Shown one piece after another: positions 3,678 through 32,548 of a DNA stretch of 64,000 nucleotides. Origin of the DNA: Polyangia bacterium. Its GTDB lineage: Bacteria > Myxococcota_A > Polyangia > JAAYKL01. The position numbers were made by a program, and so were the translations under genes. The notes under the pieces are model-generated. The model was not told the origin of the DNA, made no database searches, and worked only from the letters and a program-made list of their open reading frames with translations. Positions within the stretch are counted from its first letter, which is position 1; each line of letters opens with the position of its first letter. Where the stretch lies: assembly GCA_046484285.1 (NCBI GenBank), contig JAWOBP010000186.1, forward strand, positions 10,178-74,177, read 5' to 3'.

Positions 3678-4338
3678 GAAAAACCTCCTTTGGAGGTAGA
3701 TATCGACCGTTCGGGCCGAAGAGTTGCAAAAAAGATCGTCTTCGCGGTGCTGGTGCTGCTGGCCAGCTCGCCGGGAAAGCGGCGGAGCGTCGATGAGATA
3801 GAGGAGTGGCTGGCGGGCATCGGCGCCTCGCTGCCGGCGGAGCTGTCCAACGAGTGGGTTCTGCGCGACAGGTTGCTGCAGCCGTTTCGGCGATCGCTCG
3901 ACGGCGGGGCGGAGACGACCAGCGGCGAGATCGAGAGGCTGGTGGCGATCGATTCCAAAGGCGGTCTCGAGCTGTCCCTCGACCCGGCGAGAGTCGCGAT
4001 CGTGGGCTTCGAGCGTCCCGCTCCGGCCTGCTGACATCCCGGACCCCATCCGGCGAAATCCTTTCGCCAGAGGAGGCCCGGCAACCACGGCTGGACGAGA
4101 CCTCCGGCGCTGTACCGCGGGGACGAGCCCCGCGGCCACGAGGCCCGCCTTCGCCCGGGCGCAGGCGGGCAGCCCCTGCGGGCAAGGCCCCCCGGCCCCC
4201 TTTCCCGCCAGCGGAAAAGGGGGAGTCTGTGTGCCGGGAATCCGAGGGAGGGGAATGGGCCCGCGGGGGAGGGCCGGGGGAGGGCCGAAGAGACGGGCGG
4301 ACGGAAGGCTCCTTTCGCAGTGGCGCCGGCTTCCGACC

Positions 4339-6450
4339 TCAGGCGGCGGAGACGTCCTTTGCCTCCTTGGACCAGACGCGCACCTGGTTGCGGCCGCTCT
4401 GCTTGGCCACGTACAAGGCGGCGTCGGAGCGCTCGATCAGGGTCTGCTTGTCGCGCGCCATCTCCGGGAAGGTGGCGACGCCCATCGACATCGTGACGCG
4501 CAGCTCTCCGTTTTCGGTGTGGAAGACCTGCGACTCGAAGTCGGCGCGAATCCGCTCGGCTAGCTTGAGCGCTCCCTCGGTGCCGGTCCCGCCGCAGACC
4601 ACGGCGAACTCCTCTCCGCCGTACCTCGCGGGCAGGTCGGTGTCGCGCACCACGTTGCGCCGCAGCACGTCGGCCAGGCCGCGCAGCACCACGTCGCCCA
4701 CCGGGTGGCCGTGGGTGTCGTTGACGCTCTTGAACTTGTCCACGTCGCCGAGCACGATCGAGACCCGGTTGCCGAAGCGGTTGGCCGCCGCCAGCTGGCG
4801 GTCCAGCTCCTCCTGGAAGACGCGGTGGTTGGGCAGCCCGGTCAGGCCGTCGGTGGTCGCCATCTCCTCGAGGCGCTGCACCATGCGGGCGTTTTGCAAG
4901 GCGATCCCGAGCTGGTTGGTCATCACCTGCATGGTGGTGCGGATCGCCTCTCCGTAGGCCGACGGCTCGGCCGTGGCCAGCGCCAGCACGCCGACCGGAC
5001 GATCGCCGGATATCAGCGGCAGCACCAGCGCCGAGCGCATCTTGGAAAAGACGCGCTGGGTCTTGCGGGAGAAGACCACCTGCCGGGTGGGATCGAGCTG
5101 GCCGCGATACGGCAGGAAGTGGCGGTTCTTCAGCGCGCAGGCCGCCAGGCTGGAGCCCGCCGTCGGCCGCACGCCGACGAGCGCCTCGGCGCCCTCGCCC
5201 GCGGCCTTGCGCACTCTCAGCTTGCCGTTTTCCTCCAGCGCCACGGCCGCGACGTCGAACGAGGCGATCTGGGCGGCCGCGTCGAGCGCGGCGTCGACCA
5301 CGTCGTCCTCGTTCAGGGCCCGGGACAGCGAGCTGGAGGCTCCCAGCAGCTTGGACTGCTCGGACTTGGCGCGCTGAAGCTGGGAGAAGAGACGCTCGTT
5401 GGCGATGATCTGCAAGATGCCGTCCACCGCGGCTCCGAGCGTCTCCACGTCGCTCTTGTCGAACTTGCAGTCGCCCAGCCGGTCGGCGCACAAGACGCCG
5501 CGCAGGCTGCCCGACTCCAGGACCGGCACTCCCAAAAAATCGGTCGCGGTCGAGCCGCCGTCGTAGTAGGCCAGCCCTGAGAAACCGGGCTTGAGCCTGT
5601 CCAGCACCACCGGCGAGCGGCGCTGCAAGACGGCGCCCGGCGCTCCCGCGCGGGCATCGAGGCGCCTGGGCGCGATGTTGTCCGCGTCGGTGACGCACTC
5701 CAGGATGCGCAGCTCCGTGCCGCCGGCGTCGAGCCACAGCAAAAGGCAGGTGTGCAGCCTCATCGTGCTCTTCAACAGGTCGATGTGCTGGTACATCGCG
5801 CGGCGCACCTCGCCCACGGTGCAGCGCGAGAGCCGGGCCTCCTCTTCGGCGCGGCTCGAGGCGGCCGACTGGCCGCTGGCCGGAGCGGTGAGACGGAAGT
5901 CGCGGGCGTCCGCGGCGATGTCGCTCTCGGCGCGCGCGATTTGGGCGGTGGCGCGGCGGCGCATTCTCGACAGCTCGGTGCGGGTGAAGACCAGGTTGAT
6001 CACGGCGAAGGCGACCACGAACAGGGCGTGGATCGACGACTGCACGATCGCGCCCTCGGTCGGATCGATCGCGACCATCGCCGTCTCGATTCCGATCGTG
6101 ACCGCCACCAGCGTGAAGCCGACCCACTGGCGCGTGTAGACCACCAGGAAGGCCACCAGCACGAACACGACCGGGTAGACGGTGGAGGAAAGCCCGCCGA
6201 GAATCTGAACGCCGGCGTGCACGGCCGCGACCAGCAGCAGACCCAGCTCGAGCTCCCCCTTGCCCGCCTGTGTCTCGCACTCGGGCGGCGAGCCGAAGCG
6301 GCGCCAGGCGCGCAGGCCGAACACCAGCGCCCAGAGGCCGAGCAGGATCAGCGCCGCCGGCAGGCGCCGCGGGTGATCCGCCGCCTCGGAGAAGACCCCG
6401 CCCACCACTGCGGCGGCGAAGGCGCCGGCGAACAGGAACGTTCGCGACAT
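4339..6450 (-). CDS. membrane-anchored diguanylate cyclase (N-terminal TM region, two GAF-like domains, GGDEF domain)
   Basis: C-terminal RYGGEEF motif with preceding LTGLPN/DVDKFK; central GAF-like segments; start chosen at MSRTFLF (ATG 6448-6450) where TM helices begin; ORF is open up to 6606 so start is uncertain. Confidence 0.8.
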   Translation of the reverse strand: MSRTFLFAGAFAAAVVGGVFSEAADHPRRLPAALILLGLWALVFGLRAWRRFGSPPECETQAGKGELELGLLLVAAVHAGVQILGGLSSTVYPVVFVLVAFLVVYTRQWVGFTLVAVTIGIETAMVAIDPTEGAIVQSSIHALFVVAFAVINLVFTRTELSRMRRRATAQIARAESDIAADARDFRLTAPASGQSAASSRAEEEARLSRCTVGEVRRAMYQHIDLLKSTMRLHTCLLLWLDAGGTELRILECVTDADNIAPRRLDARAGAPGAVLQRRSPVVLDRLKPGFSGLAYYDGGSTATDFLGVPVLESGSLRGVLCADRLGDCKFDKSDVETLGAAVDGILQIIANERLFSQLQRAKSEQSKLLGASSSLSRALNEDDVVDAALDAAAQIASFDVAAVALEENGKLRVRKAAGEGAEALVGVRPTAGSSLAACALKNRHFLPYRGQLDPTRQVVFSRKTQRVFSKMRSALVLPLISGDRPVGVLALATAEPSAYGEAIRTTMQVMTNQLGIALQNARMVQRLEEMATTDGLTGLPNHRVFQEELDRQLAAANRFGNRVSIVLGDVDKFKSVNDTHGHPVGDVVLRGLADVLRRNVVRDTDLPARYGGEEFAVVCGGTGTEGALKLAERIRADFESQVFHTENGELRVTMSMGVATFPEMARDKQTLIERSDAALYVAKQSGRNQVRVWSKEAKDVSAA

Positions 6451-6692
6451 GCGCCAGCCGCGCCTGATGCCGTAGATGGTGTGCTCCAGGGTCGTCACTC
6501 GGGCGCTCCGAGCATCAAGGTATCGCTCGCGCCCCGGCGCGGTCAAAAATTCGGCCGTGTTGGGACAGATGAGCTCTATGTGGCGTCGGCGACACAAGAC
6601 GCTCATGGGTTTTTGTCTGGTTGAATTTTTTTGACACCAACGACCGTCTTTTTGGCTATACTACGGGTCGGGGCAGTGGGTGAGGAGGTCTC

Positions 6693-8447
6693 GTGGACAG
6701 CCCGAGCAAGAGGATCGAGCTGGTTCGCAGTGATTCGGAAGCCGCCGGGGAGCACGAAGGCGGCGGCCGCGAGACGGCTAGTTACAGCTTCCGCATTCTC
6801 CAGTCGGCGGCTCGCTACGTGAAAGAGAGCTTCGGCGCCGACGAGCTGGAACGCATCGCCCGGGAGGCCGGAATCTCCGCGGATCAGCTTGATGGGGGAG
6901 ATTACTGGGGCACTGTCGAGCAGCTGAACGAGTTCAACAAGAAACTACGCGCGCTGGTGGATTCTGACGAGGAGTACCGGCGGGCCCATACATACAAGCT
7001 CAAGGAATCGTACGGACCGCTGCGGTTTTTCTTGCGAGCGCAGGCGCCGGCTCGGGTCTACGAGATGGCGGCGCGTCATTTCGGCGCAATATCGACAGTC
7101 AGCAGCGGAGAGGTGGATTTGGATTCGGGGCGGAACCGCATCGTGTTGAGGTATCGATCGACCGAGCCGGAGAGCCGCCTGATGTGCATCAGCCGCCAGG
7201 CCCAGAGCGCGGCGCTGCCGACCCTGTGGGGATTGCCCCCGGCGCACCTGGAGGAGCGCTGTTGCATCTGCAACGGCGATGATCGCTGCGAGTACGTGTT
7301 GAAAATCTACGAAGCCCGCCGCTGGCTGCCGCAGCTGGCCGGGGCCGCGCTGGGCGCGCTCGGCGCCCTGGCAGCCGTGGCGGCCGGCGCGCAGGCGGTG
7401 CCGGTCGGCGTGCTGTGGGCGGCGCTGCCCTCGATCGGCCTGCTCGTCGGTCACCTCTACGAGTTGCGCCGCACCAACAAGGTCAATTTCGAGATGGGCG
7501 AGGAGATCGGCGACGAGCTGCGGCGGCTGCTGCGCGAGCACGTCGGCGCCCGGCGCGAGATCTACGAGCTGCACCAGCGCCAGCGCGAGTGGAGCCTGGA
7601 GCTGGAGAAGCAGGTCGCCGAGCGCACCGGCGCGATGCGGGAGGTGCTCTCCCGCCTGCGCAATCTCAAGGTCGAGCGCCAGTCCACGCTGCGCGGCTTC
7701 TCCCACGACCTGCGCAACCCCTTGCAGACGCTGACCGCGACCAACCAGCTGCTGACCGAGGAGGCCGCCGGCGCGGGCGAGGAGACCCGCGCGCTTCTGG
7801 AGGAGCAGCGGATCGGGATCGAGTCGCTGACCGTGATGCTCGACGACCTGGTCCAGTTCGCCTCGGCCGAGGGCGGGCTGCGCCTCAAGCCCAAGACGAT
7901 CGAGATCCCTCCGCTGGTGGACTCGCTGCGCCGCCGGCTGCGCGCGCTGGTGCAGGGGCGGGACATCCGGGTCAGCGTGATGTCGAACCGCGAGGCGCCG
8001 GATCGAATCGAGATGGATCAGATGGTGCTCGATCGGGTGGTCGACAACCTGCTGACCAACGCGGCCAAGTACACGTCGCGCGGCAGCATCGTGGTGGAGC
8101 TGGACGGCAAGCCCGGCTTTCTGACCCTCAAGGTCTCGGACACCGGGCGCGGGATCGACAAAAATCAGATCGAGCAGGTCTTCCACCCGGGCGGATCGCC
8201 GCCCGAGCTGCGCGCCTCGCGCAGCCTGGGCGTCGGCCTCTCGGTGGTGGTGCGCCTGCTGGCCCAGATCGGCGGCAGGCTGGAGGTGATGTCCCTGCCC
8301 GACAAGGGCACCACCTTCTGGGCCCATTTTCCGGTCGAGGTGGAGGCCGCCGTCGTGCAGACCGGCGCCGAACAGCCCCGCGGAGAGGCGGCCGCCGATG
8401 ACCCGGTGGCCGAGGTGGTCACGATCCGCCGCGCGGAGGGCGAATGA
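6693..8447 (+). CDS. sensor histidine kinase (HisKA + HATPase_c) with unusual N-terminal Cys-containing sensor domain
   Basis: H-box FSHDLRNPL, N/G boxes (DNLLTNAAKYT, DTGRGID, GVGLSVV); N-terminal approx 200 aa with CCICNGDDRCEY; GAGGAGG 6 nt before GTG start; TM segment mid-protein. Confidence 0.85.
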   Translation: MDSPSKRIELVRSDSEAAGEHEGGGRETASYSFRILQSAARYVKESFGADELERIAREAGISADQLDGGDYWGTVEQLNEFNKKLRALVDSDEEYRRAHTYKLKESYGPLRFFLRAQAPARVYEMAARHFGAISTVSSGEVDLDSGRNRIVLRYRSTEPESRLMCISRQAQSAALPTLWGLPPAHLEERCCICNGDDRCEYVLKIYEARRWLPQLAGAALGALGALAAVAAGAQAVPVGVLWAALPSIGLLVGHLYELRRTNKVNFEMGEEIGDELRRLLREHVGARREIYELHQRQREWSLELEKQVAERTGAMREVLSRLRNLKVERQSTLRGFSHDLRNPLQTLTATNQLLTEEAAGAGEETRALLEEQRIGIESLTVMLDDLVQFASAEGGLRLKPKTIEIPPLVDSLRRRLRALVQGRDIRVSVMSNREAPDRIEMDQMVLDRVVDNLLTNAAKYTSRGSIVVELDGKPGFLTLKVSDTGRGIDKNQIEQVFHPGGSPPELRASRSLGVGLSVVVRLLAQIGGRLEVMSLPDKGTTFWAHFPVEVEAAVVQTGAEQPRGEAAADDPVAEVVTIRRAEGE

Positions 8448-10207
8448 GGCAGGCCCACTCATTGCCGCCGCCTCCCGTCGAGGGGACGCCGGAGCGCAGA
8501 GCGGTCGACGTCTTTCTCCGCTACCTGGAGGCCGAGGGCGCCTCGGTGGTGTTCGGGATTCCGGGCGGCCTGCTGCATCCCCTGTTCGAGGCGATCGAAT
8601 CTTGCGAGTCGATCGAGATGGTCGTGACCAAGCACGAGGAGGGAGCGGCCTTCATGGCCGACGGCTTCGCGCGCGGCGGTGGCCGGCTGGCGGTCTGCGC
8701 CGGCACCTCCGGTCCGGGGTCGACCAATCTGCTGACCGGTGTCTCGTGCGCCTTCGCCGACGGCGTGCCGCTGCTGGTGGTCACCGGCCAGGCGGCCAGC
8801 GGCGCGATCGGCAAGGGCGCCGCCCAGGAGACCGGGCGCGAGGACATGGACATCGTGGCGATGTTCCGCCCGATCACCAAGTACTCGGCGATGGTCACCT
8901 CTCCGGAGCAGCTCGCCGCGCACCTGCGGCGCGCGCTGCGGCGGGCGCTCAACGGCAGGCCCGGCCCGGTGCACCTCAACGTGCCGGTCGATTTCTGGGA
9001 AAAGCCGGTGCTGGAGGACTGGTTCGCCCCCGAGAGCTACCGCCCGATCTCGCAGGCGTTCGATCGGCGCGCGGTCCAGCGCGCCACCGAGGTGCTGCTC
9101 GGCGCGCGGCGCCCCTTGATCCTGGCCGGGGCCGGGGTCGGCGTGGCCGGGGCGCGCGATCACCTGCTGGCGCTGGCCGAGCTGCTGCCGGCGCGGGTCG
9201 TCACCTCTCCGCGGGGCAAGGGCCTCTTTCCGGAGAACCACCCGCTCTCGCTGGGAGTGCTGGGCTTCGCCGGACACCGCGAGGCCCGGGAGACGGCGCT
9301 CGGCCCCGATATCGACGTGCTGTTCACGATCGGGGCCTCGCTCAACGAGACCACGACCCTCAACTGGCACCCCGACCTGCGGCCCTGCGAGGCCTTGATC
9401 CAGCTCGACATCGACGCCGACCGGGTGGGGCGCAACTACCCGGTCGACGTCCCGTTGGTGGGCGACGCCCAGGCGATCCTGCTCGAGCTGATCTACCACG
9501 CCCATCGCTCGATCCGGGAGGGCAACAACCCGCGCTCGAGCTGGGGCTCGGCGCCCGAGCCGCTGCGCGGCCACGAGCGCTACCTGAGCTCCGAGCTGCG
9601 GGTCTCCGAGGAGCTGCCGCTCAAGCCGCAGCGCTGGCGCGCCGACCTGGAGCGGGCGCTGCCTCCCGACACCGTGATCTTCTCGGACATCGGCGGCCAC
9701 ATGCTGTTCAACATCCAGCACCTCTGCGTGCAGGACGAGCAGCGCTTCGTGCTCAACCTCGGCTTCGGGTCGATGGGGCACGGCACCGCGGCGCCGATCG
9801 GAGCGGCGCTGGCCGAGCCGCAGCGGCCGGTGGTGGCGATCGTGGGCGACGCCTGCTTCACGATGAACGGGATGGAGCTGCTCACCGCGCGCGAGTACGG
9901 GGTGCCGGTGGTCTGGATCGTGGAGAACAACAACATGCACGGGATCACCTGGCACGGCAGCCAGAAGGTCGGCCGCAAGCAACCCCTGGAGGCGATCCGG
10001 TACCGCGAGCCGCTGGAGGTGGCGGCGATCGCCAGGGCGATGGGGCTCGAGGCCTGGGTGGTGGATCGCCCCGGCCAGATCGAGGAGGTGCTGGCCCGCG
10101 CCCTGGAGCGGCGAGGGCCGGCGGTGATCGAGGTACGCGTGGACGGCTCGGTGGCGCCGCCGATCGGGGATCGGGCGCGCTCGGTGGCGGGCTTCGTCAG
10201 GAGGTGA
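8444..10207 (+). CDS. thiamine-pyrophosphate-dependent enzyme (acetolactate synthase / benzoylformate decarboxylase superfamily)
   Basis: 587 aa; TPP motif IVGDACFTMNGMEL...NN; N-terminal Pyr domain GIPGG; start overlaps HK stop (ATGA). Confidence 0.85.
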   Translation: MRQAHSLPPPPVEGTPERRAVDVFLRYLEAEGASVVFGIPGGLLHPLFEAIESCESIEMVVTKHEEGAAFMADGFARGGGRLAVCAGTSGPGSTNLLTGVSCAFADGVPLLVVTGQAASGAIGKGAAQETGREDMDIVAMFRPITKYSAMVTSPEQLAAHLRRALRRALNGRPGPVHLNVPVDFWEKPVLEDWFAPESYRPISQAFDRRAVQRATEVLLGARRPLILAGAGVGVAGARDHLLALAELLPARVVTSPRGKGLFPENHPLSLGVLGFAGHREARETALGPDIDVLFTIGASLNETTTLNWHPDLRPCEALIQLDIDADRVGRNYPVDVPLVGDAQAILLELIYHAHRSIREGNNPRSSWGSAPEPLRGHERYLSSELRVSEELPLKPQRWRADLERALPPDTVIFSDIGGHMLFNIQHLCVQDEQRFVLNLGFGSMGHGTAAPIGAALAEPQRPVVAIVGDACFTMNGMELLTAREYGVPVVWIVENNNMHGITWHGSQKVGRKQPLEAIRYREPLEVAAIARAMGLEAWVVDRPGQIEEVLARALERRGPAVIEVRVDGSVAPPIGDRARSVAGFVRR

Positions 10208-10211
10208 GCGG

Positions 10212-10916
10212 ATGAGCCGAAAAGAGGACCCGCTCGAGGACTGCCGCGGGCCGATGGACGAGCCGATCTGGCCCGAGCGGCTGGCGGCCAGGGTGATCTC
10301 GCCGGGACGCCCGCCGCGGATTCGCGGCTACGATGTGGAGGGGGACCTGGCGAGGCACTACTCCTTCGCCGAGGTGGTGCTCGCTGCGCTGTGCGGCGAG
10401 GCGCCGGATCGCGCCGCGGGCCGGGCTTTCGAGATCGCGCTGGTCTGGCTGAGCCCGCTTTCCGCGGCGCACGCGCCGGTGCACGCCGCCGGGCTGGCGA
10501 GACTCTGCGGGGCGGACACCACGGGCATCGCGGGAGTGGCGGCGATCGGGCTGGCCGAGCTGGCGCGAGAGGTCGCCGCACAGCACGCCGAGCTGCTGAG
10601 CTGGCTGGACGAGGCGCGGGGAGCGCCGCCGGACGGCTTCGCGCCGGCCGACGGCGAGGATCGGCGCCGCTCGGCGCTGTTTCGCGGACAGATCGGGGAG
10701 GCCGGCCTGGAGCTGCCGGACGGAGATCTGGGCCCGACGGCGCTGGCGCTGTGCGTCCTGCACCGCTGCGGGCTGCGCAGCCGCGAGCTGATCGAGGCGG
10801 CGCTGGTCGTCTCCCGGCTGCCGTGCGCCGCGGCCGAGGCGCTGGAGGTCCCGCCGCTGCGCTTCGACCAGTACCCGATCAACCTGCCGCGGTTTCGCTA
10901 CGTGGAGGACGAATGA
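10212..10916 (+). CDS. citrate-synthase-like protein, N-terminal half (split gene)
   Basis: IRGYDVEGDLARHYSFAEVVLAALCGEAPD resembles the citrate synthase LRYRGYDIEDL...FEEVAYLLL segment; AGGAGG 8 nt upstream of ATG. Confidence 0.5.
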   Translation: MSRKEDPLEDCRGPMDEPIWPERLAARVISPGRPPRIRGYDVEGDLARHYSFAEVVLAALCGEAPDRAAGRAFEIALVWLSPLSAAHAPVHAAGLARLCGADTTGIAGVAAIGLAELAREVAAQHAELLSWLDEARGAPPDGFAPADGEDRRRSALFRGQIGEAGLELPDGDLGPTALALCVLHRCGLRSRELIEAALVVSRLPCAAAEALEVPPLRFDQYPINLPRFRYVEDE

Positions 10917-11734
10917 CGCGGCGCGGACCGGAGCCGATCCCCACGCGCGTCGGGCTCAGCGGAGAGCGGGGAAACAGGTTTTGCGGGAAGTCCGTAGAGC
11001 GCGATCTGGTCGGCTGTTCGACTCCTTTGGATCTGGTCGCGCTCTGCTCGTTGGGACGACCAATCGATGAGGCGGAACACCGTTCGTTGAGCGATTTGTC
11101 CGTTGTGCTCACGGCTGCCGATCCCCGCATCTGGCCGCTCAAGCTGACAAGGCTGTTGGCATGCTACGGAAGATCCTTTTGCGGTATCGCCGGTGGGGTG
11201 CTCGGTCTGGTGGGCAATTCGCTTGGGCCTCAGTCGACTCAGGATGCCGCCGAGATGTTATGGAAGGTCTCTCGAGCACGCGAAGTGATCAGCGACGATG
11301 AAGGGGAGCTGCGCCGTTTGGTCGAAGAAGAAATCGGGAAACGTGGATACGTTCCCGGGTTCGGGATTCCGTATCGAAGCGTCGATGTGCGCTTGTCGGC
11401 TCTCGATCGCGAGATGGCCGAGCTCGAGAGAGATCGGCTGCCCTTCTACCGCTTGAAAGGATTGTTCCAACAGGTCGCATCAACCAGCTTCCCCAAGCTG
11501 ATACCGAACGTATCGCTGGGCGGGGCGGCGCTTTGCCTGGACATCGGTTTTCGCCCGGACCAGATAGCGCCGCTGGTGCTGTGGCTGGTTTCGCACACCT
11601 ATTTTTGCAACGCCGCCGAGGAGGCCTCCTCCAAGACGCCAGTCGGGCGGTCATTGCTGGAAACATCGATTGACTACGTGGGAAGATCTCCGCGTCGTTC
11701 CTCGCGGGAGGTCGAAGCCTCGACAAGCCGCTGA
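10913..11734 (+). CDS. citrate-synthase-like protein, C-terminal half (split gene; catalytic His apparently replaced)
   Basis: GYVPGFGIPYRSVDVRLSAL aligns with the citrate synthase VPGYGHAVLRKTDPR loop but has I in place of the catalytic His; ATGA overlap with upstream half. Confidence 0.5.
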   Translation: MTRRGPEPIPTRVGLSGERGNRFCGKSVERDLVGCSTPLDLVALCSLGRPIDEAEHRSLSDLSVVLTAADPRIWPLKLTRLLACYGRSFCGIAGGVLGLVGNSLGPQSTQDAAEMLWKVSRAREVISDDEGELRRLVEEEIGKRGYVPGFGIPYRSVDVRLSALDREMAELERDRLPFYRLKGLFQQVASTSFPKLIPNVSLGGAALCLDIGFRPDQIAPLVLWLVSHTYFCNAAEEASSKTPVGRSLLETSIDYVGRSPRRSSREVEASTSR

Positions 11735-12133
11735 CGTGCTGGAGCTTCGGAGTTTCTCGCCGCCGGCAAGCGACCACATGTCGGCTCTTGCCGGCTTCGG
11801 ACGGGATGGCGGGCATCGAAAACAGCGCGGTCCAGTGGACGCACCGTGCCGGTGATGTGAGCGCACCGGCCGTTTCGATTTTGTTGCAGGGGTAAAGAAC
11901 TCTTACATCCCCCTGTTTGGGGCCGAAAAGATCGGCTCACCCGCTTCGAGTCGGGTTATCGCGATCAATCTCCGCCCACCGGACGGCCCCCCGGCCCGAA
12001 ACGATTTACTCTCAGCGCGGATGGCTCTCGGCGACAGCGGGGTTTACTGGAGAGCGCTGCCGGGTTATTTATTGATATAGCTTGATTTTCGGAGCCTTGG
12101 CGGCTTCGGGGTCTTCTTGGCGGTCGATTGTCG

Positions 12134-13762: not shown

Positions 13763-14142
13763 GCGCGTCCCGTCAACGCGAGCGGGCGCTGCGCGCGGTG
13801 CGGCGGCGCGATCGGGCGGCGGCCGAGCGCGAGCTGGTCGCGGCCGAGCGCGGCCTGCGGCTCCAGGAGAGACGCCTCGAGCGGCTCCACGAACGCGTCG
13901 CCAGGCTGCGCAGGCGGGCCGCCGGGCCGCGGGAGGGAAGCGTCTTTCCGGCCTGGGCCCTGGCCTCGGGAGACGAGGCTCGGCGCCTGTGCCGCGCCGA
14001 GCTGGAGCGCGTCGAAGCCGAGCTGGAGCGAGTCTCCGGGCAGCGCGACCGGGCGCTCGATCGCCTGGAGAGGGCTCGCCAGGAGGCGGTCCGGGCCGCC
14101 CGCGCGCTGTCGGCGATCGACGGCAGAGACTTCAGAACCTGA
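13759..14142 (+). CDS. small Arg/Glu-rich coiled-coil protein (FliJ/YscO-like composition), hypothetical
   Basis: GTG start overlapping previous stop (GTGA); RERALRAVRRRDRAAAERELVAAERGL...; low confidence, GC-rich frames are easily open. Confidence 0.3.
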   Translation: MSASRQRERALRAVRRRDRAAAERELVAAERGLRLQERRLERLHERVARLRRRAAGPREGSVFPAWALASGDEARRLCRAELERVEAELERVSGQRDRALDRLERARQEAVRAARALSAIDGRDFRT

Positions 14143-15184
14143 GCAGCGCGGTCCCCCACAGGTAGCCGGCGCCGAACGCGGCCAGCACGCAGAGGTCGCC
14201 TCGCCGCAGGCGGCCGGCCCGCCGTTCCTCGTCCATCAGGATCGGGATCGAGGCCGCGCCGGTGTTGCCGATCCGTTCGATATTGGAGGGGGCTTTCTCC
14301 TCGGGGATGCGCAGCAGCTCCGAGAGCTTGTTGTTGATCCGGGCGTTGGCCTGGTGGAAGAAGAAGTGATCGACATCCTCCACCCTCAGGCCGGCCTCCT
14401 TGAGCACGCTCCGCGCGCTGCGCACGAGCCTCTTGACCGCGTTGCGGAAGACCTCCTGGCCGATCCAGAACGGGAGCTTGGTCTGGCCGGGCGGAAACCC
14501 CCGCTCGCTCCAGTACTGGCGGCACTTCTCGAGCTCCGGCGGCCAGGCGGCCTCGCCCGCGGCGAGACCGACGATGCTGTCGCTCGTCATCACCAGGTCC
14601 GGCACTCCCGATCCGTCTCCCTGCAGGTCGGTGATGATCGTTCCGCGCTCTCCGGCGGAGGGGCCCACCACCGCGGCGCCGGCTCCGTCGCCGAAGATGA
14701 CTCCGACCTGTCGATCAATCTTGAAATGATCGAACTCCTTCTCGGAGAAGACGCACAGCACGTGACGCGCCTGCCCCGACGAGATGTAGAGGTCGGCCAG
14801 CGACAGCGAGTAGACGAAGCCGGAGCACTGCTGGCGGATATCCAGCACCGGAATCGTGCGATCGATCCCCAACCGGAGCTGCACCACCATCCCCGGACCC
14901 GGGTACGAGAAGTCGGGAAACATCGTCCCTGCGATGATCATGTCTATCCGAGACGGCTCCAGGCCGGCGTCCTCGACGGCTCGGCGCGCCGCTTCCGCGG
15001 CCAGCGAGGCGCTCGTCTCCTCCGGCGCGGCGCGGCGCCGAGAGCCTATCCCCGTGCGCGTCCTGATCCATTCATCCGAGGTGTCCATCATCTCGGACAG
15101 CTCGTCGTTGCTCACCTCTCGCTCGGGTAGGTACGAGCCGATGCCGAGGATCCCGGATGTGATTTTTTTCCTGTTGTGAAGCAC
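14132..15184 (-). CDS. fabH: 3-oxoacyl-ACP synthase III (KAS III, FabH-like)
   Basis: 350 aa; active-site triad context QQCSGFVYSL, FHQANARI, GNTGAASIP; GTG start per ORF track. Confidence 0.85.
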   Translation of the reverse strand: MLHNRKKITSGILGIGSYLPEREVSNDELSEMMDTSDEWIRTRTGIGSRRRAAPEETSASLAAEAARRAVEDAGLEPSRIDMIIAGTMFPDFSYPGPGMVVQLRLGIDRTIPVLDIRQQCSGFVYSLSLADLYISSGQARHVLCVFSEKEFDHFKIDRQVGVIFGDGAGAAVVGPSAGERGTIITDLQGDGSGVPDLVMTSDSIVGLAAGEAAWPPELEKCRQYWSERGFPPGQTKLPFWIGQEVFRNAVKRLVRSARSVLKEAGLRVEDVDHFFFHQANARINNKLSELLRIPEEKAPSNIERIGNTGAASIPILMDEERRAGRLRRGDLCVLAAFGAGYLWGTALLRF

Positions 15185-16852: not shown

Positions 16853-19800
16853 TCACTCGGTGCGGCGCTCCTGCCTGCGGTCGCCCTCGAAGCGGCTCAC
16901 GTTGTGGGCGAAGATCTCCATGCGCGCCATCACGTTGGGCGGGTAGGGCTGCCCGTCGTTCTCCAGCGCGATCACCGGGTAGCCGTGGCGTCGCGCCCAG
17001 GGCGCGTAGACCCCTTCCACGAGGCGCCCGGGCAGGCAGGCGAACGGGGCGATGATCGCGATCCCCGAGTAGCCGTCCTGCATCGCGGTCGCGGCCACTC
17101 CCGACGAGACCGAGGCCTCGCTCTCCAGCTCGGGGTCGATGAAGTAGCGCTCCGTGTTGCCGACGATTTCGTCCATGTCGTGGGGCACCGGCGGGATCAA
17201 CCCGGTGGGCAGCAGGTGCCGCGCGACCTTGTGCTCGACCATGCCCTTGTAGAAGCTCTCGACGTGGTGCCAGGCCCGATCGCGCAGCGCCGCGGGGCGC
17301 AGCGATCCGAACCGGCCGTTTCGCTGCCGCTCCTGCCGCAGGCGGTGCCTGCGCGAGTGGTCGGTGTAGGAGACCCACTCGGTGATTCCGGTTACCTTGG
17401 GAAGGATCCCCTTGGAAACCAGAAAGTCGGTGATCTCGGCGACCGAGAAGGTGTCCCGGCGGACGTAGATCTCGCCGACGACCAGCACGCGCGGCAGATC
17501 CTGGATATCGCGCTTGCGCGGCACGGCGGACAGCTCGCGCCCCGCCGCCGCGACCGCCGCCTCCACGTCGCCGCCCTCTCTCGTGGCGTCGACGATTCTG
17601 CGCCAGCAGCGATCGAAGACCCGCATCGCGCTTTGCTCGTCGCGCGCGACCAGGCGCAGCGCTGTTCGCACGTCGGTGAAGTAATCACCCAGCACCAGCG
17701 CCCACCAGATTTCGCGGCTGAAGCTCGGGCCCATCTCCCGGTAGGAGTTGGACGAGTCGGCGACCAGGATCCGCACGTTCTCCCAGCCGAGCTCGGCGAA
17801 GAGGTTCTCGTAGAAGACGTGGTACTGCCCGGTGCGGCACGGGCCGAGCGTCGAGGGCACGAAGAACAGCAGGATCTCGTCGGGCCGGTTGGGCGGATGC
17901 TTCTGCATGTACTGCAGGATCAGCCCCAGCACCAGCAGCGCCGGGATGCACTCCTTGCCCGAGGCCACGTTGCGCGCCAGCTGCGTGGTCTGGACGTCGG
18001 GGACGGGGAGGTGGTGCGAGTTGACGCCGGCCTTGCGGGCCGCCGCCGAGGTCATCTCGGTGGAGAGGTCGCCCATCGAGGGCCAGATCAGCTTGACCCG
18101 CGGATCGCGGATGTCGATCCGCTCTCCGGTCAGCCGGTCGACGACGTCCAGGTACTCCTCCTTCGGCTCCAGCTCGTAGCGGCGCGGCGGACGCGGCGCG
18201 GGCTCGCTCAGCCCGGCCCGGCGGTAGCTCTCCACGATGTCGAGGAACGCCTCGATCCGCGTATCGATTCCGGCGTCGGCGGTGTGGGAGTCGATCTCGA
18301 GCACGAGGTACGGCTTCTGCCCCATCATCCAGCGCAGGTAGTGGATCATGAACGAGTCGGGCGCGCAGGAGAAGTTGGTCATCCAGGTGACGTACAGGTT
18401 GGGGATCTCCCGCGCGCGGCTCACGGCCTTCATGTCCTGCTGGCCGTAGTACCAGTACATGTTGGGGAAGACCCGGCTGTCGGGGCGGTAGAGCATGTCG
18501 AACGGCACCACCGTCACCTCCCGGGTGACCAGCTTGCGCGGAATCCCCATGTTGGCGTCGCCGGTGAAGGCGTTGTACGGCCGGCCGAGCAGCGCCACGA
18601 AGATCCGATCCGGCTGCGAGACGATCTCCTCCACCACACGCTCTCCGAGCTCGCGATACTCGCGCTGGAAACGGCGCTGCTCGTCGAGGCCGCGCTCGAA
18701 CGCGGCGGCTCCCTCGGCGCGGGTGAAGCCGAGCCGCTGGGCGACCTTCTCGAACTGCTCGCGGGTCACCTGCACGCCGCTCTTGAACGAGATCATCGGT
18801 CTGAGCACGCGCGAGTCGTCCAGATCGAAGGCCTGCCGTGCGAAGAAGGGCAGACCCTGGGTCAGCGGACAGGCGCAGGCGTGCACCGGCTGGCGCTCGG
18901 TGGAGGGCATGTCGCGGAAGAACGGCAGGAACAAAAAGTCGGGATCGCGATCGAGCGAGTCCTGGATCGCGCCGTGGGCGATCTCGGCGGGGAAGCAGTA
19001 GTTGCTCTCCAGCTTGGCCAGCCCCTTGGACGAGATATCTCGCGAGGGCGCGATCTCGACGCCCAGCGTGTGGAAGAACCAGGAGTAGAGCGGCCACAGC
19101 GAGTGCACCGAAAAGGCCATCGGCACGCCGACCACGGCCTCGCTGCGCTTGACCAGCGCCGCGGGATCGGGAGCGAAGCGCTCGAAGAGCATCTCGGAGC
19201 GGATCCGGGTGTAGTCCGCGATCTCGCCACCGCCTTGGTCGCGGTTCTTCTTGCGCCGCACGCCGGTGAAGCGGGAGCAGCGCCCGCCGAACGGGTAGCG
19301 CCGCCCGTCGATCTCCAGTCGGCGGATCTCGCAGCGGTTGTCGCACGCCTTGCAGGTGAACGTGCCGCAAGAAACGATTTCACGGTCGATGATCCCGGCC
19401 AGATCGAGCTCGCCGCGCTCCAGCAGTCCCTCGCGGTGCTTGGCGGCCGCCAGCAGGGCCACGCCAAAGCATCCCATCAGCTCCGGATCGGGCGGAACGA
19501 TCACGCGCTTGCCCGTCAGCCTGGCGAAGGCGAGCGGCACGGCGCGGTTCTTGGCCACGCCGCCTTGCAGCACCACCCGCTCGCCGACGAAGCGGTTGCC
19601 CACCACGCGGTTGAGGTAATTGGAAACGATCGAGCAGACCAGGCCGGCGGCGATGTCTTCGCGCGTGGCGCCCTGTTGGATCGCCTTGCGGATGTCGGAG
19701 TTGATGAACGCCGAGCAGTGCTCGCCGAACTTGAGGGGCGCCGCGGCCCGGATCGCGACGGGCGCGATCTTTGCCGCGTCGTCGATGTTCAAATCTCCCT

Positions 19801-21124
19801 GGGCCGACTCCTCGAGAAAGGAGCCCGTGCCGGCCGAGCAGGCCTCGTTCATCGCATAGTCGATCGGGACGGAGTTGTTCAGATGGACGTACTTGGCGTC
19901 CTGGCCGCCGATCTCGAAGATCGTCTCCGCGTCCTGCTCGAAGTAGGTGGTGCCGACCGTGTGCGCGATGATCTCGTTGTAGACTCCGGCGGTCTCGAGA
20001 AACACGCCGAGCAGCTCGCGCGAGGAACCGGTGGTCGCGGCCAGCGAGATGCGCGGGCGTGCGCCGCCGATCCGCTCCAGCACGCGGCTCAGACACAGCT
20101 TGAGCGCCCGCACCGGGTTGCCGTGCGTGCGGCCGTAGTGCTCGGCCACGATCTCGCAGGTCTCGGCGTTGACCAGCGCGGCCTTGGTCGTGGTCGATCC
20201 GCCGTCGACACCCAGGATGTACTCGGCGTCGGGGTCGAACTCTCCCCGCATCGACGGCAGGTACTGCACGCGGCCGCGCATCTCGTCGAGCGGCGGATAG
20301 GTGGAGAACGAGAGGCTGTTCTCGCCGCGGACGAGGCGGTCCGCAGCCGGGAGGGGAGCACCCTTCTCGGCCGCGATCAGCGCCGCGCCCCAGGCTTCGA
20401 AGTAGGGGCTCTGCCCGGCGACGACGAACTCTATCGACGGCCACTGCCGCCGCAGGAACTCGACCATGTGGCGGTTGCGCGTCACCCCGCCGATCAGGAC
20501 CACGCGGCCCGAGTCCACCCGACCCTTGACCAGGAACTCGGAGACCTTGTCCGCCATCAGCTTGCTCAGCGACAGCGCGATGTCGCCCACCGTGCACTCG
20601 CCCTTGTTCAGGCGGTGCGTGCAGTCGGATTTCATGAACACCGAGCAGCGGGCGGAGATCCTGTGCACCTCGGCGTCGCGCACCACCTCGTCCAACTGCT
20701 CGAGTCGCAGGTCCATGCGGCCCAGCTGTTGGCGGAAGAACTCGCCAGTGCCCGAGGCGCATTTGTTGCCCGAGTAGGTGCTGGCGATCCGGCCCCGTCC
20801 GTCCAGCACGTGGACGACCAGGTCCTCGCCGCCCATCGAGACCACGGCTCGCGGCGAGATTCCCAAAGCGTCCAGCCCGCGCTCAGCGGCCACGGGGGCG
20901 ATCACCTCGGGCAGATCGAGGCGGAATCTTCCCTCGGTTCCGGTCACCACGGCTCGCGGCGGCGAGCCCGGATCGATCTCCAGCCCTTCGAGGGTGCGTC
21001 TCAACGTCCCGGGCACGTCGCCGTCGTGCGCCTCGACCCGGTGTGCGATCTCGGTTGCTCCCTCGAGCAGACAGGCCTTGACCGTGGTCGATCCGATGTC
21101 AATTCCCAGCGTCCCGTCAGTCAT
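16853..21124 (-). CDS. large fused CoA-substrate-specific enzyme activase (two BadF/BadG/BcrA/BcrD ATPase modules) plus 2-hydroxyacyl-CoA-dehydratase-like (HgdAB/DUF2229) domain
   Basis: 1423 aa; two acetate/sugar-kinase-fold modules (GIDIGSTTVKA, GVDGGSTTTKAAL) each with downstream Cys cluster, followed by large C-terminal Cys-rich domain; convergent with symporter (8-nt gap). Confidence 0.8.
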   Translation of the reverse strand: MTDGTLGIDIGSTTVKACLLEGATEIAHRVEAHDGDVPGTLRRTLEGLEIDPGSPPRAVVTGTEGRFRLDLPEVIAPVAAERGLDALGISPRAVVSMGGEDLVVHVLDGRGRIASTYSGNKCASGTGEFFRQQLGRMDLRLEQLDEVVRDAEVHRISARCSVFMKSDCTHRLNKGECTVGDIALSLSKLMADKVSEFLVKGRVDSGRVVLIGGVTRNRHMVEFLRRQWPSIEFVVAGQSPYFEAWGAALIAAEKGAPLPAADRLVRGENSLSFSTYPPLDEMRGRVQYLPSMRGEFDPDAEYILGVDGGSTTTKAALVNAETCEIVAEHYGRTHGNPVRALKLCLSRVLERIGGARPRISLAATTGSSRELLGVFLETAGVYNEIIAHTVGTTYFEQDAETIFEIGGQDAKYVHLNNSVPIDYAMNEACSAGTGSFLEESAQGDLNIDDAAKIAPVAIRAAAPLKFGEHCSAFINSDIRKAIQQGATREDIAAGLVCSIVSNYLNRVVGNRFVGERVVLQGGVAKNRAVPLAFARLTGKRVIVPPDPELMGCFGVALLAAAKHREGLLERGELDLAGIIDREIVSCGTFTCKACDNRCEIRRLEIDGRRYPFGGRCSRFTGVRRKKNRDQGGGEIADYTRIRSEMLFERFAPDPAALVKRSEAVVGVPMAFSVHSLWPLYSWFFHTLGVEIAPSRDISSKGLAKLESNYCFPAEIAHGAIQDSLDRDPDFLFLPFFRDMPSTERQPVHACACPLTQGLPFFARQAFDLDDSRVLRPMISFKSGVQVTREQFEKVAQRLGFTRAEGAAAFERGLDEQRRFQREYRELGERVVEEIVSQPDRIFVALLGRPYNAFTGDANMGIPRKLVTREVTVVPFDMLYRPDSRVFPNMYWYYGQQDMKAVSRAREIPNLYVTWMTNFSCAPDSFMIHYLRWMMGQKPYLVLEIDSHTADAGIDTRIEAFLDIVESYRRAGLSEPAPRPPRRYELEPKEEYLDVVDRLTGERIDIRDPRVKLIWPSMGDLSTEMTSAAARKAGVNSHHLPVPDVQTTQLARNVASGKECIPALLVLGLILQYMQKHPPNRPDEILLFFVPSTLGPCRTGQYHVFYENLFAELGWENVRILVADSSNSYREMGPSFSREIWWALVLGDYFTDVRTALRLVARDEQSAMRVFDRCWRRIVDATREGGDVEAAVAAAGRELSAVPRKRDIQDLPRVLVVGEIYVRRDTFSVAEITDFLVSKGILPKVTGITEWVSYTDHSRRHRLRQERQRNGRFGSLRPAALRDRAWHHVESFYKGMVEHKVARHLLPTGLIPPVPHDMDEIVGNTERYFIDPELESEASVSSGVAATAMQDGYSGIAIIAPFACLPGRLVEGVYAPWARRHGYPVIALENDGQPYPPNVMARMEIFAHNVSRFEGDRRQERRTE

Positions 21125-23378: not shown

Positions 23379-24206
23379 ATGAATCGACCGAAACTCTGGG
23401 CATTGTTCTCGTGTGTCGCCGTGGCTCTTCCCGGGGCGCTGCTGGCCCAGGACGCGGCTCAGCCCGACGAGGGCGAGGTCGGGGCTCAGGCCGGCGCCGA
23501 GAGCGGAGAGGCCGCCGGCGGCGAGGAAGCCGGTGACGAGGCCGCGGCGGGAGAGTCCGGCCAGGAGGCCGCCGGCCAGGAGGCCGCGGCCGAGCAGCCG
23601 GCGGCGGGCGCGGGAGAGCCCGGAATGGACAAGGGAACCTACACCGTGAGGCTGCGCGATCTGGAGGATCGCATCAACCGTCTCAAGGAGCAGATCTTCC
23701 GCTCCAAGGCCCGTCTCAGCCTGCTGGCGGAGACGGTGCTCGACCGCAAGATCGCCGGGGCCAAGGCCGCGATCTCTTTCCGCAACGAGATGGGGGGATC
23801 GTTCCGCTTGACCAAGGCGACCTTCCTGCTCGACGGAGGGCCGATCTTCAACAAGAGCGACGAGGCAGGGAGCCTGTCCGATCGCGAAGTGATCGATCTT
23901 TTCGACGGGCCGGTGATGCCGGGCGACCACACCTTGAGCGTGGTGCTTCACTATCGGGGTCACGGCTACGGGATCTTCTCCTACTTGAAAGGCTATTCGT
24001 TCAAGGTCCGCTCCAGCCGCACCTTCACGGTCGGCGAGGGCAAGGCGGTCGAGGTCGAGGTCGTCGGCTTCGAGAAGGGCGGGGTCACGACACCCCTGGA
24101 GGAGCGCCCGGCCGTTCGGTATGTCGAGGACGTGGGTGAATACGAGGGCAAGGCCGCCGCCGAGAAGGGCGAGCCGATCGCCGAGGGAGCCGGAGAGGGT
24201 CTGTGA
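23379..24206 (+). CDS. secreted protein with acidic low-complexity N-terminal region; first gene of Agl/Glt-like cluster
   Basis: Signal peptide MNRPKLWALFSCVAVALPGALLAQ; GAGGAAGG RBS; stop overlaps next gene start (GTGA). Confidence 0.5.
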   Translation: MNRPKLWALFSCVAVALPGALLAQDAAQPDEGEVGAQAGAESGEAAGGEEAGDEAAAGESGQEAAGQEAAAEQPAAGAGEPGMDKGTYTVRLRDLEDRINRLKEQIFRSKARLSLLAETVLDRKIAGAKAAISFRNEMGGSFRLTKATFLLDGGPIFNKSDEAGSLSDREVIDLFDGPVMPGDHTLSVVLHYRGHGYGIFSYLKGYSFKVRSSRTFTVGEGKAVEVEVVGFEKGGVTTPLEERPAVRYVEDVGEYEGKAAAEKGEPIAEGAGEGL

Positions 24207-26485: not shown

Positions 26486-26534
26486 GCCCCGTGTCGGCTT
26501 ACGGGGAGATGCTACGGTCGAGCGACTGGAAGAG

Positions 26535-31555: not shown

Positions 31556-31586
31556 ATCGCCCGCCGGCAGCGATCGGACCGGGGGA

Positions 31587-31652
31587 CGGAAACGGCTCGT
31601 CTCCGAGCGCGTCGCCGGGCCGTTTCGGGGCGCCGGAAGCGGTTTTCTCTTT
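31587..31652 (+). terminator. candidate rho-independent terminator after TPR lipoprotein gene
   Basis: Inverted repeat cggaaacgg...ccgtttcgg followed by ttttctctttt. Confidence 0.3.
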
Positions 31653-31818
31653 TCGTGAAAAGTGTTCGATTTTTGACTTGGTGATGAGCAAAACACTGTG
31701 GTAGGATGCTCTCCGCTCGGCTGCGGTTCGTCAGCCGAAGAGAGGTAACGGACGAAGACGGGACGGAGCATTCGAGCGCCAGAAACGGGCGCCATTCCCG
31801 ACGAAGGAGGAGTCGAAG

Positions 31819-32460
31819 ATGCAGGCAATCGCAGAGGCATTCTCAGCGGGCGGAGGCTGGATGTACGTGATCGCGTTCGCGTCCGTGATCGGTCTCGGCA
31901 TCATTGTGGAACGGTTCATTTTCCTGTTCTTCAAGTACAACATCAACGCCAACGCATTCATGGGGCAGGTGCAGAAGTTGGTGATGGCGAACAACATCGA
32001 CCGCGCCATCAAGCTGTGCAACGCCGCGCCCAACGCCGCGCTCCCCAAGGTGATCAAGGCCGGGCTGACTCGGGCCAACAAGGGCGAGCTCGAGATCTCG
32101 AACGCGATCGAGGAGGCTACCCTCGAGGTGGTGCCGATGGTGAGCAAGCGCACGCCGATCCTCGGCGGCGTGGCCAACATCGCAACGCTGATGGGACTGC
32201 TCGGAACGATCGTCGGTCTGATTCAGGCGTTCGCCGCTCTAGAGTCGGCGGCGCCCGACGCCCGCGCGGCCGCGTTGGCCAAGGGTATCTCGATGGCGAT
32301 GAACACCACGGCCTTTGGTCTGATCGTGGCGATCCCGTGCATGGCGGCGCAGATCTTCTTGCAGTCCGTGACCACGAAGATCCTCAACGAGATCGACCAG
32401 TACTCGGTGAAGCTGGAGAACCTGCTCGTTTCGAGGTACCGCGCCGGCGGTTCGCAGTAG
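31819..32460 (+). CDS. MotA/TolQ/ExbB-family proton channel (AglR-like)
   Basis: 213 aa, three TM helices, conserved C-terminal TM with ...TTAFGLIVAIPCMAAQIF; AAGGAGGAG RBS. Confidence 0.85.
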   Translation: MQAIAEAFSAGGGWMYVIAFASVIGLGIIVERFIFLFFKYNINANAFMGQVQKLVMANNIDRAIKLCNAAPNAALPKVIKAGLTRANKGELEISNAIEEATLEVVPMVSKRTPILGGVANIATLMGLLGTIVGLIQAFAALESAAPDARAAALAKGISMAMNTTAFGLIVAIPCMAAQIFLQSVTTKILNEIDQYSVKLENLLVSRYRAGGSQ

Positions 32461-32548
32461 CACCGAGCGGGTCGAAGCTCCCAGGCGGCGCCCTCGATGA
32501 GCGCCGCCCGGGGCAAGGTCGGCTCGGTTCGATTGGAGGTCAACGCTC

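Follow-up and report, generated by a model that had tools for sequence, protein, structure and literature searches.

A conserved four-gene operon of Polyangia joins a sensor histidine kinase to a predicted acyloin synthase and two citryl-CoA lyase-like paralogs

A group of four co-directional genes is located at positions 6693-11734 of a 64,000-nucleotide stretch of DNA from a Polyangia bacterium (GenBank assembly GCA_046484285.1, contig JAWOBP010000186.1), which is referred to as the window. The genes encode a sensor histidine kinase (HK), a thiamine diphosphate (ThDP)-dependent enzyme and two smaller proteins, A and B (Table 1). The four open reading frames (ORFs) had been called in an earlier reading of the sequence, the original prediction, and are all present, as are the peptides RGYDVE..FAEVV, VPGFGIPYR and CCICNGDDRCEY, which had been quoted from them. 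In that reading, all four genes were joined by ATGA start/stop overlaps. Such overlaps are indeed found between the HK and ThDP genes (8444-8447) and between A and B (10913-10916), whereas the ThDP gene and A are separated by a 4-nucleotide spacer (TGA at 10205-10207, ATG at 10212). A GGAGG-like Shine-Dalgarno motif lies 5 to 11 nucleotides 5' of all four starts. The GC content at third codon positions (GC3) is 0.89-0.95 for the HK (0.89), ThDP and A genes, which is the level expected of real genes in a genome of around 67% GC, and 0.70 for B. The ratio of non-synonymous to synonymous substitution rates (dN/dS) ranges from 0.17 to 0.28 across the four genes (0.17 for B in comparison with the sister locus), and they are therefore considered to be real and under selection. 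The TTGACA and TATACT elements 5' of HK are a candidate promoter only, since a consensus promoter scan made no call in the region 6607-6692. Neither the promoters nor the terminators called by the scans exceeded the chance level, and there is no terminator-like site on the plus strand within 6693-11734.

Table 1. Positions of the genes, protein regions and candidate signals of the operon, and of a further conserved protein encoded in related loci (designated L with a number).
Feature	Position	Strand	Remarks
Sensor histidine kinase (HK)	6693-8447	+	584 aa, GTG start
HK sensor domain, V4R/H-NOX-like	6693-7307	+	aa 1-205
HK predicted zinc motif C165-x22-E188-x2-C191-x7-C199	7185-7289	+	spacing as in XylR
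HK hydrophobic hairpin, putative membrane anchor	7326-7460	+	aa ~212-256; Kyte-Doolittle 19-residue windows >1.6
ThDP-dependent enzyme	8444-10207	+	587 aa
ORF A	10212-10916	+	234 aa
ORF B	10913-11734	+	273 aa; true start is ATG 10913, within a longer mechanical ORF
Gap between HK and the divergent GGDEF/GAF gene (4339-6606, -)	6607-6692	+	GAGGAGG before the GTG start of HK
Candidate promoter 5' of HK	TTGACA 6631-6636, TATACT 6657-6662	+	20-nt spacer; read from the sequence
MAC-x-I protein	L004 9691-10215, L010 9595-10041, L019 9667-10233, L027 9514-10095		
MAC-x-I protein	L035 7194-7682, L038 9532-10080, L045 7456-7989		

A scan of one genome per species, in which loci were mapped by tblastn and their gene junctions analyzed, revealed 41 related loci. 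They are found in Polyangia-type metagenome-assembled genomes (MAGs), a few of which have doubtful bin labels, and in the cultured species Labilithrix luteola DSM 27648, which has the complete cassette (L047, NZ_CP012333.1, about 2.578-2.595 Mb). Around 22 loci with upstream sequence belong to type 1, which has the gene order HK-ThDP-A-B of the window; their ThDP enzymes are 63-95% identical to that of the window, and the identity of the kinases goes down to 34%. In 22 of 22 cases, the same HK with the same N-terminal domain is encoded directly 5' of the ThDP gene, and the two genes overlap (-4 or -1) in 13 of them. The HK-ThDP and A-B pairs stand in a different order to one another in L040, L049 and L054, where each of them is intact. 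The kinase moves with the ThDP gene as a unit, which bears out the notion that it is hard-wired to the enzyme module, and its obligate linkage to the window-type ThDP subfamily is firmly supported. Type 2, comprising around 15 loci (L001, L004, L010, L020, L024, L027, L034, L035, L038, L042 and L045 among them), has the order ThDP-A-B and lacks the kinase. The ThDP enzymes of these loci share 28-33% identity with that of the window; they are related to ScyA (NF035927, 711 bits) and are another family of arylpyruvate-coupling acyloin synthases. In the type 3 loci L015-L019, A-B occurs with no ThDP gene within 8 kb. Genes for an acyl-CoA dehydrogenase and an acyl-CoA ligase follow B with an overlap in L015 and L018, and a FadB-like gene lies beside A-B in L017.

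Some MAGs carry two copies of A-B, and the -4 overlap of A and B is found in about 30 of 40 loci. An all-versus-all clustering of the flanking ORFs revealed that only the HK, ThDP, A and B families are conserved across the loci. The flanks that were sampled are unrelated and vary from locus to locus, encoding for instance DnaJ, TyrRS, a radical SAM enzyme or a hybrid PAS/GAF kinase (L036). In the closest relatives of the window, a gene of the carnitine/choline acyltransferase family (Carn_acyltransf, PF00755) overlaps the stop codon of B (9075-10790 in L005, 9487-11271 in L008 and 9535-11274 in L009), and the synteny between the window and L005 ends at around 11628, some 100 bp short of the stop of B (break region 11628-12127). 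The recurrence of gene order and overlaps in dozens of diverged loci is more than chance, and it is firmly supported that the four genes at 6693-11734 form an operon that stands on its own and is conserved in Polyangia (Myxococcota).

Two further observations were made in the related loci. A conserved protein of around 150-180 amino acids (MAC-x-I...GAVFA-x-WG-K/R-P...YHVV-x-EG-x-GF), which has no match in Pfam or NCBIfam, is encoded beside A-B in at least eight loci; these are mostly kinase-less type 2 loci, together with the type 3 locus L019 and with L022, which has a window-like ThDP gene. In L030, the HK homolog (4313-6241) contains an in-frame stop and is either a pseudogene or the result of an assembly error.

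The product of the first gene is a two-component-type histidine kinase with an intact HisKA H-box and intact N, G1 and G2 boxes of HATPase_c. Both domains are matched above the Pfam cut-offs (HisKA, 7e-08; HATPase_c, 2.6e-22), and the H-box SHDLRNP with H338 as well as the motifs DTGRGI and GVGLS can be read from the sequence. Two hydrophobic helices at amino acids 212-256 separate the kinase core from the N-terminal domain; therefore, both parts are predicted to be on the same, cytoplasmic side of the membrane. As had been noted in the original prediction, no response regulator is encoded next to HK; none was found in the operon or among the 34 window ORFs scanned with Pfam, out of about 45 GC3-supported ORFs. 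Since no response regulator is adjacent in the window or conserved in any related locus, HK is regarded as an orphan kinase.

In an alignment of the N-terminal domains of 19 HK homologs, three Cys, one Glu and one Gly residue are invariant (C133, E156, C159, G163 and C167 of the alignment), the Cys and Glu residues corresponding to C165, E188, C191 and C199 of the window HK. The Cys cluster 'CCIC...C' (CCICNGDDRCEY) that had been pointed out in this domain is present; however, the family keeps only C165, E188, C191 and C199, while the other two Cys residues are lineage-specific. The same C-x22-E-x2-C-x7-C spacing is found in XylR of pWW0 (...C-x22-E-TS-C-RGCGDDK-C; C0/E23/C26/C34), with which HK also shares the GD-x2-C core. 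Zinc is coordinated by C155, C181 and C189 in MopR (PMC9556785), and the Cys residues of the HK motif have the same spacing as these ligands, whereas DmpR uses C151, E172, C177 and C185 (PMC7264223). The sensor domain of HK is thus likely to be a zinc-containing small-ligand domain of the V4R/XylR type. In the regulators XylR, DmpR, MopR and PoxR (XylR_N and V4R), however, this domain forms the N-terminus of sigma-54 enhancer-binding proteins, while in the window it is linked via a membrane hairpin to a histidine kinase; moreover, in sequence comparisons, the similarity of these proteins to HK is below detection outside the motif. An exhaustive search retrieved the N-terminal domain of HK from 383 clusters of sequences; of the 150 matches listed, almost all are kinases of 540-600 amino acids.

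The second gene had been described as encoding a carboligase- or decarboxylase-type enzyme dependent on thiamine diphosphate, and all three domains of such enzymes are present (TPP_enzyme_N/M/C, E-values of 1e-34 to 1e-36). The protein has the ThDP-binding motif GDA-x24-NNN at amino acids 468-497 and the catalytic Glu region HEEG at amino acids 64-67. Its best relatives of solved structure are BbmA from Brevibacillus (8x3x; 2e-139, 469 bits, 43.6% identity) and CsmA (8x3z; 7e-101, 342 bits). BbmA and CsmA are homologs of CybE and function as alpha-hydroxy-beta-keto acid synthases (PMC12395478, PMC13307353); for synthases of the CybE/BbmA/CsmA/Thzk0150 type, which belong to furanolide and acyloin pathways, PMC12395478 cites Liu et al., Nat Chem 2025. 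The best acetolactate synthase reaches only 5.5e-71 (243 bits) against the window enzyme. An identity as acetolactate synthase was rejected, as the protein scores below all NCBIfam equivalog cut-offs (386 versus 538 bits) and BbmA and CsmA score far higher. The enzyme is nearer to the characterized acyloin synthases than to acetolactate synthase, glyoxylate carboligase or oxalyl-CoA decarboxylase, and its prediction as an acyloin synthase (a synthase of alpha-hydroxy-beta-keto acids) of the BbmA/CsmA/CybE type is firmly supported. However, with an identity of only 43.6%, the specificity of BbmA cannot be confidently transferred to it.

During the synthesis of cyanobacterin, CybE couples 4-hydroxyphenylpyruvate with 2-oxoisovalerate, and the FabH-like enzyme CybF subsequently closes the furanolide ring with coumaroyl-CoA (PMC12395478, PMC8777810). 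The window enzyme shares the three-domain architecture, the ThDP-binding motif and the HEEG region with synthases of the CybE/BbmA/CsmA type; however, the gene neighborhood differs. A CybF-like ACP_syn_III gene is located directly 3' of the BbmA-like ThDP gene in a Brevibacillus-like locus and in Thermosporothrix, whereas the downstream slot of the ThDP gene is occupied by A-B in the window and all its Polyangia relatives, and the sensor kinase gene stands in front. There is no CybF-type ketoacyl-ACP synthase III (KAS-III) gene beside the ThDP gene of the window, which sets the operon apart from furanolide clusters encoding CybE and CybF. The only KAS-III gene, at 14132-15184 (-) of the window, was rejected as a CybF-type partner; it encodes an ordinary FabH according to NCBIfam (309.8 versus 249 bits), and most related loci lack it. 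As a separate observation, a BbmA-like ThDP gene (53% identity to BbmA) is followed by a gene for a 1082-amino acid hybrid dCache/GAF/PAS histidine kinase in an Elusimicrobia MAG (GCA_016706945.1; L057, 7001-12268), and 17 further similar places were found; ThDP acyloin synthases may thus be linked to kinases in another phylum, too.

The proteins A and B have no match in Pfam, whose citrate synthase family is PF00285, and they stay far under the cut-offs of the NCBIfam citryl-CoA lyase (CCL) models (PRK06224; 20.6 bits for A with a cut-off of 261; 38.8 bits for B with a cut-off of 193), which start at the N-terminus of each of the two proteins. Searches of the Protein Data Bank (PDB) with the single sequences gave marginal E-values of 0.2-0.3. 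A and B could be placed only with profiles of their families and with structure models, and alignments of 19 B-type (A1) and 36 A-type (A2) sequences were built. The B profile matches the CCL of Hydrogenobacter thermophilus (6hxp) with 1.4e-10, positions 19-265 aligning with residues 16-256 of CCL, and hhalign gives a probability of 98% over amino acids 18-267. An AlphaFold2 model of B (pLDDT 83.5) is matched by Foldseek to a CCL-type fold (1e-07, TM ~0.7). For A, the profile match (around 1e-04) covers the N-terminal third of CCL and of citrate synthases, and a profile-profile comparison of A and B gives 84% probability over 174 columns. A and B each align from their own N-terminus over the whole 256-268-residue CCL. 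Since the two profiles, the A-B alignment and the model of B agree, each ORF encodes a complete short citrate synthase domain in CCL format. It is firmly supported that the pair consists of full-length, strongly diverged tandem paralogs with the short, all-alpha citrate synthase fold of citryl-CoA lyase.

This contradicts the original prediction, in which A and B were the N- and C-terminal halves of one citrate synthase. By eye, the two proteins do look like halves, as the clearest similarity of A lies in the N-terminal RGY..DL..GELP region and that of B around GFGH..DPR. However, the profile match between A and B, the alignments of both over the whole length of CCL and the separate conservation of the two ORFs refute a split fold. 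A frameshift in a single ordinary gene, which had been named as the outcome that would undo the proposal, was rejected as well, given that A-type ORFs of around 230 and B-type ORFs of 275 amino acids are separately kept in about 40 loci, overlap by -4 in about 30 of 40 loci and have dN/dS values of around 0.2. A split or frameshifted citrate synthase gene can therefore practically be dismissed.

With CCL and the CCL module of ATP-citrate lyase, A and B share the fold and the length of around 260 amino acids, and motifs of CCL are retained (RGY-x-DL...GELP, G-F/Y-G, D-x-R, PN-V/I, the Glu of the AH..E helix and the C-terminal P-R). In contrast to CCL, which is one homo-oligomeric protein, the window encodes two unlike paralogs without the catalytic residues H99, H139 and D189, and their genetic partner is a ThDP carboligase instead of citryl-CoA synthetase or a gene resembling succinyl-CoA synthetase. 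The GFGI sequence of B (nucleotides 11357-11368), which had been predicted to replace the loop bearing the catalytic His, does align with the GYGH/GFGH loop of CCL and citrate synthase, and H139 of CCL is replaced by I152; I, V or T are found at this position in the B family. The loss goes further than had been anticipated, as all three catalytic positions are gone in both proteins and not only the equivalent of His320. H99 of CCL corresponds to a variable position in B (S103), and D189 (NVD) to S201 within PNVS (nucleotides 11504-11515), where the family has S, G or A. A lacks the loops on which the two His residues lie, and conservation is absent at the position of the Asp. A and B hence lack the triad that marks citrate synthase and CCL enzymes and yet have their fold. 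Other residues are strictly kept: B has 21 invariant positions including R72, W74, K77, R80, R155, D158, R160, N199, D210, E236 and R261, and D45, Y50, H91, E209, Y221 and Y230 are invariant in A. According to the alignment with CCL, B retains D158 and R160 of the D-x-R motif as well as R261 of the P-R motif at the C-terminus, and the two Arg residues are equivalents of citrate-binding ones. In the numbering of pig citrate synthase, R160 and R261 correspond to R329 and R421'; an equivalent of R401 is not kept.

The genes of the cassette have not diverged evenly. A low GC3 of B (0.62-0.75) is found only in the window, L005, L008 and L009, whereas the neighboring genes including the downstream acyltransferase gene have values of 0.89-0.98. 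Between the window and L005, amino acid identity is 95% for the ThDP enzyme, 91% for A, 86% for HK and 64% for B, and the corresponding numbers of synonymous substitutions per site (dS) are 0.12, 0.21, 0.27 and 1.63; dN/dS of B is still 0.17. Within HK, dS is 0.61 in the sensor domain versus 0.14-0.15 in the remainder. Between L008 and L009, the proportion of synonymous differences (pS) is 0.61 in B and 0.67 in the sensor domain and 0.35-0.37 in the ThDP gene, A and the kinase core. Thus, in two independent close pairs from the sub-clade of the window, the synonymous and non-synonymous divergence of B and the sensor domain is several-fold above that of the kinase core, A and the ThDP gene; no such mosaic was seen in other clades. 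The pattern is that expected of old, recombining allele classes at a specificity locus and could have arisen in this way, but it is based on two pairs of loci, and a shift in composition could inflate dS. Horizontal transfer of a block of B and the carnitine acyltransferase gene was rejected as the cause of the low GC3 of B; the GC3 of the acyltransferase gene is normal (0.89-0.93).

What could the cassette be for? A role in the biosynthesis or sensing of a small molecule, as suggested by the original prediction, fits the BbmA/CybE-type ThDP enzyme and the XylR/MopR-like sensor motif. We propose, with a probability of roughly 45%, that the operon encodes a synthase-receptor unit whose product, a small aromatic molecule, would resemble an acyloin or butenolide and in which the kinase would sense the product or a precursor and A-B would take the place of CybF. 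HK would be anchored in the membrane and carry a cytoplasmic N-terminal domain of the V4R/XylR-MopR class for small hydrophobic or aromatic ligands with a structural Cys3-Glu zinc site. The ThDP enzyme, translationally coupled to HK, would act like other synthases of its type, which remove the carboxyl group of one 2-oxo acid (typically an arylpyruvate) and couple what is left to another 2-oxo acid. A-B, the anciently duplicated CCL-fold pair, would most likely form a heteromer in the manner of citrate synthase dimers and bind or convert the labile acyloin acid, presumably with a CoA thioester. The quaternary C(OH)(COO-) center of the acyloin acid would resemble that of citrate, and A-B would fill the slot held by the CybF-type ketosynthase-III partner in the Brevibacillus and Thermosporothrix loci. 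Since A-B occurs with two subfamilies of acyloin synthases and with CoA-thioester enzymes and lies in the place of CybF, it would handle the acyloin acid together with an acyl-CoA; the connection to CoA is suggested by the carnitine acyltransferase gene in the closest relatives and by acyl-CoA dehydrogenase, acyl-CoA ligase or FadB-like genes elsewhere. Likewise, as this class of sensors binds small aromatics, the kinase would read the product or its arylpyruvate precursor and most likely signal to an unlinked response regulator.

Several results weigh against this proposal. The assignment of the HK sensor to V4R leans on the motif and on sub-threshold Pfam matches of the 19 N-terminal domains, namely Arabinose_bd in 6 of 19 (best 5.5e-05), V4R in 4 of 19 (best 0.037) and DUF2378 and HNOB in one each. 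A search of the PDB with the profile of this domain did not retrieve MopR or DmpR and gave chance-level matches to toluene monooxygenase only, and hhalign against the A-domain of XylR covers only the 17 columns of the Cys motif with a probability of 11%. No response regulator is linked to the cassette in any related locus. The His-His-Asp triad (H274/H320/D375 in pig citrate synthase, H99/H139/D189 in CCL) is absent from A and B; since the canonical catalytic residues are all gone, catalysis by these proteins would need new residues. The Carn_acyltransf gene of the closest relatives is absent from the whole window. Finally, the literature searched contains no description of the cassette or of this gene combination. 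What appears to be new here is the combination of a V4R-type kinase, a coupled acyloin synthase and a triad-less CCL-fold pair, the parts of which come from known superfamilies.

The strongest competitor of the synthase-receptor proposal is a catabolic or salvage operon that responds to its substrate: the kinase would sense an incoming aromatic compound or arylpyruvate, and the ThDP enzyme and A-B would degrade or convert it, for instance by cleavage of a C-C bond in the lyase direction with CoA esters. The sensor motif is common to XylR, DmpR and MopR, which regulate aromatic catabolism, citryl-CoA lyase is a cleaving enzyme, and in some loci the neighbors of A-B are genes of the beta-oxidation type, encoding acyl-CoA dehydrogenase, acyl-CoA ligase or a FadB-like protein; in addition, the cassette is found amid varying unrelated genes, including housekeeping genes, and not in large biosynthetic clusters. 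However, the closest characterized relatives of the ThDP enzymes, BbmA, CsmA, CybE and ScyA, are all biosynthetic carboligases, the clustering of the flanks revealed no transporter, ring-cleavage or other catabolic genes conserved with the cassette, and a kinase gene coupled 5' of its own target enzymes would be unusual for a catabolic regulator. We consider a catabolic role unlikely, though it deserves to be kept in mind.

A non-catalytic function of A-B is rather improbable in our view. The two proteins would in this case be regulatory, stabilizing or specificity subunits of the ThDP enzyme, comparable to the small subunit of acetohydroxyacid synthase, or adaptors that report the status of citrate, oxaloacetate or acyl-CoA. 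The complete loss of the triad in A as well as in B would be accounted for, as would the retention of two of the three citrate-binding Arg equivalents in B (R160, R261); moreover, A-B accompanies ThDP enzymes of either subfamily, and the usual -4 overlaps favor stoichiometric co-production. However, A-B occurs without a ThDP gene within 8 kb in L015-L019, among them loci with acyl-CoA dehydrogenase/ligase operons, and the 21 invariant positions of B, many of which are charged, are more typical of an active site. The synthase-receptor proposal can also be carried further: A-B would then be a new heteromeric enzyme of the citrate synthase fold, working without His-His-Asp and joining an acyl-CoA to the acid made by the ThDP enzyme as a functional analog of CybF, the V4R-type kinase would read the resulting butenolide or acyloin signal, and B and the sensor domain would co-diversify into strain-specific 'pherotypes' that serve as a private language or in kin recognition in Polyangia. 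This extension is speculative, and we regard it as distinctly improbable.

Synthase genes beside sensor kinase genes are known from the alpha-hydroxyketone quorum sensing systems CqsA/CqsS of Vibrio and LqsA/LqsS of Legionella. CqsA and LqsA are pyridoxal phosphate-dependent acyl-CoA transferases, and CqsS and LqsS sense through their transmembrane helices. The proposed signaling by the window cassette is comparable to these systems only as a functional analogy, in its logic and not in its ancestry; CqsA and LqsA are not ThDP enzymes, CqsS and LqsS do not sense through a cytoplasmic V4R-like domain, and the systems are not known to have CCL-like partners. A second parallel is found in scytonemin synthesis, in which ScyC is a dedicated enzyme for the labile beta-keto acid produced by the ThDP enzyme ScyA. 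ThDP enzymes related to ScyA are linked to the second set of A-B loci, and a labile beta-keto acid would need a downstream enzyme in both cases; however, the ThDP enzyme of the window is not ScyA-like, and homologs of ScyB and ScyC were not seen in the loci.

Other genes were noted in the remainder of the window. Divergent from HK, a 755-amino acid GAF-GAF-GGDEF diguanylate cyclase is encoded at 4339-6606 (-), which is found at the same place in L005 (92% identity), whereas this upstream place is taken by PilZ and GGDEF genes in L008 and L009. Near the left edge of the window, a gene for an AAA_14/DUF4143 ATPase and a PIN-domain gene adjoin each other (717-2657, -). The region 16853-21124 (-) encodes a 1423-amino acid protein with two BadF/BcrA-type ATPase stretches and DUF2229, which resembles CoA-enzyme activases and is not conserved with the cassette. 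At 24203-37553 (+), a run of genes for large TPR proteins (760, 1206 and 509 amino acids) is followed by genes for MotA/ExbB and two ExbD proteins and by three ORFs without a family match; between 26 and 36 kb, the AT skew is strongly positive (0.13-0.24), and the GC content of 0.62-0.64 is below that of the rest of the window. RtcB is encoded at 43168-44616, and the large and small subunits of a NiFe hydrogenase at 51472-54050 (-).

Chemical communication in Polyangia is poorly understood. If the proposed function is true, these bacteria would own a compact cassette encoding the synthase and the receptor of an aromatic molecule derived from an acyloin, and this cassette would be a candidate system of cell-cell or metabolic signaling. 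A and B would represent a new branch of the citrate synthase/CCL fold, in which two obligate, triad-less paralogs were recruited as partners of a ThDP carboligase, which would mean either that an old scaffold has acquired new chemistry or that pseudo-enzyme subunits of a new class exist. As ThDP acyloin synthases are of biocatalytic interest, a new downstream partner could open up new scaffolds. Since the cultured Labilithrix luteola DSM 27648 has the complete cassette, the system is experimentally tractable.

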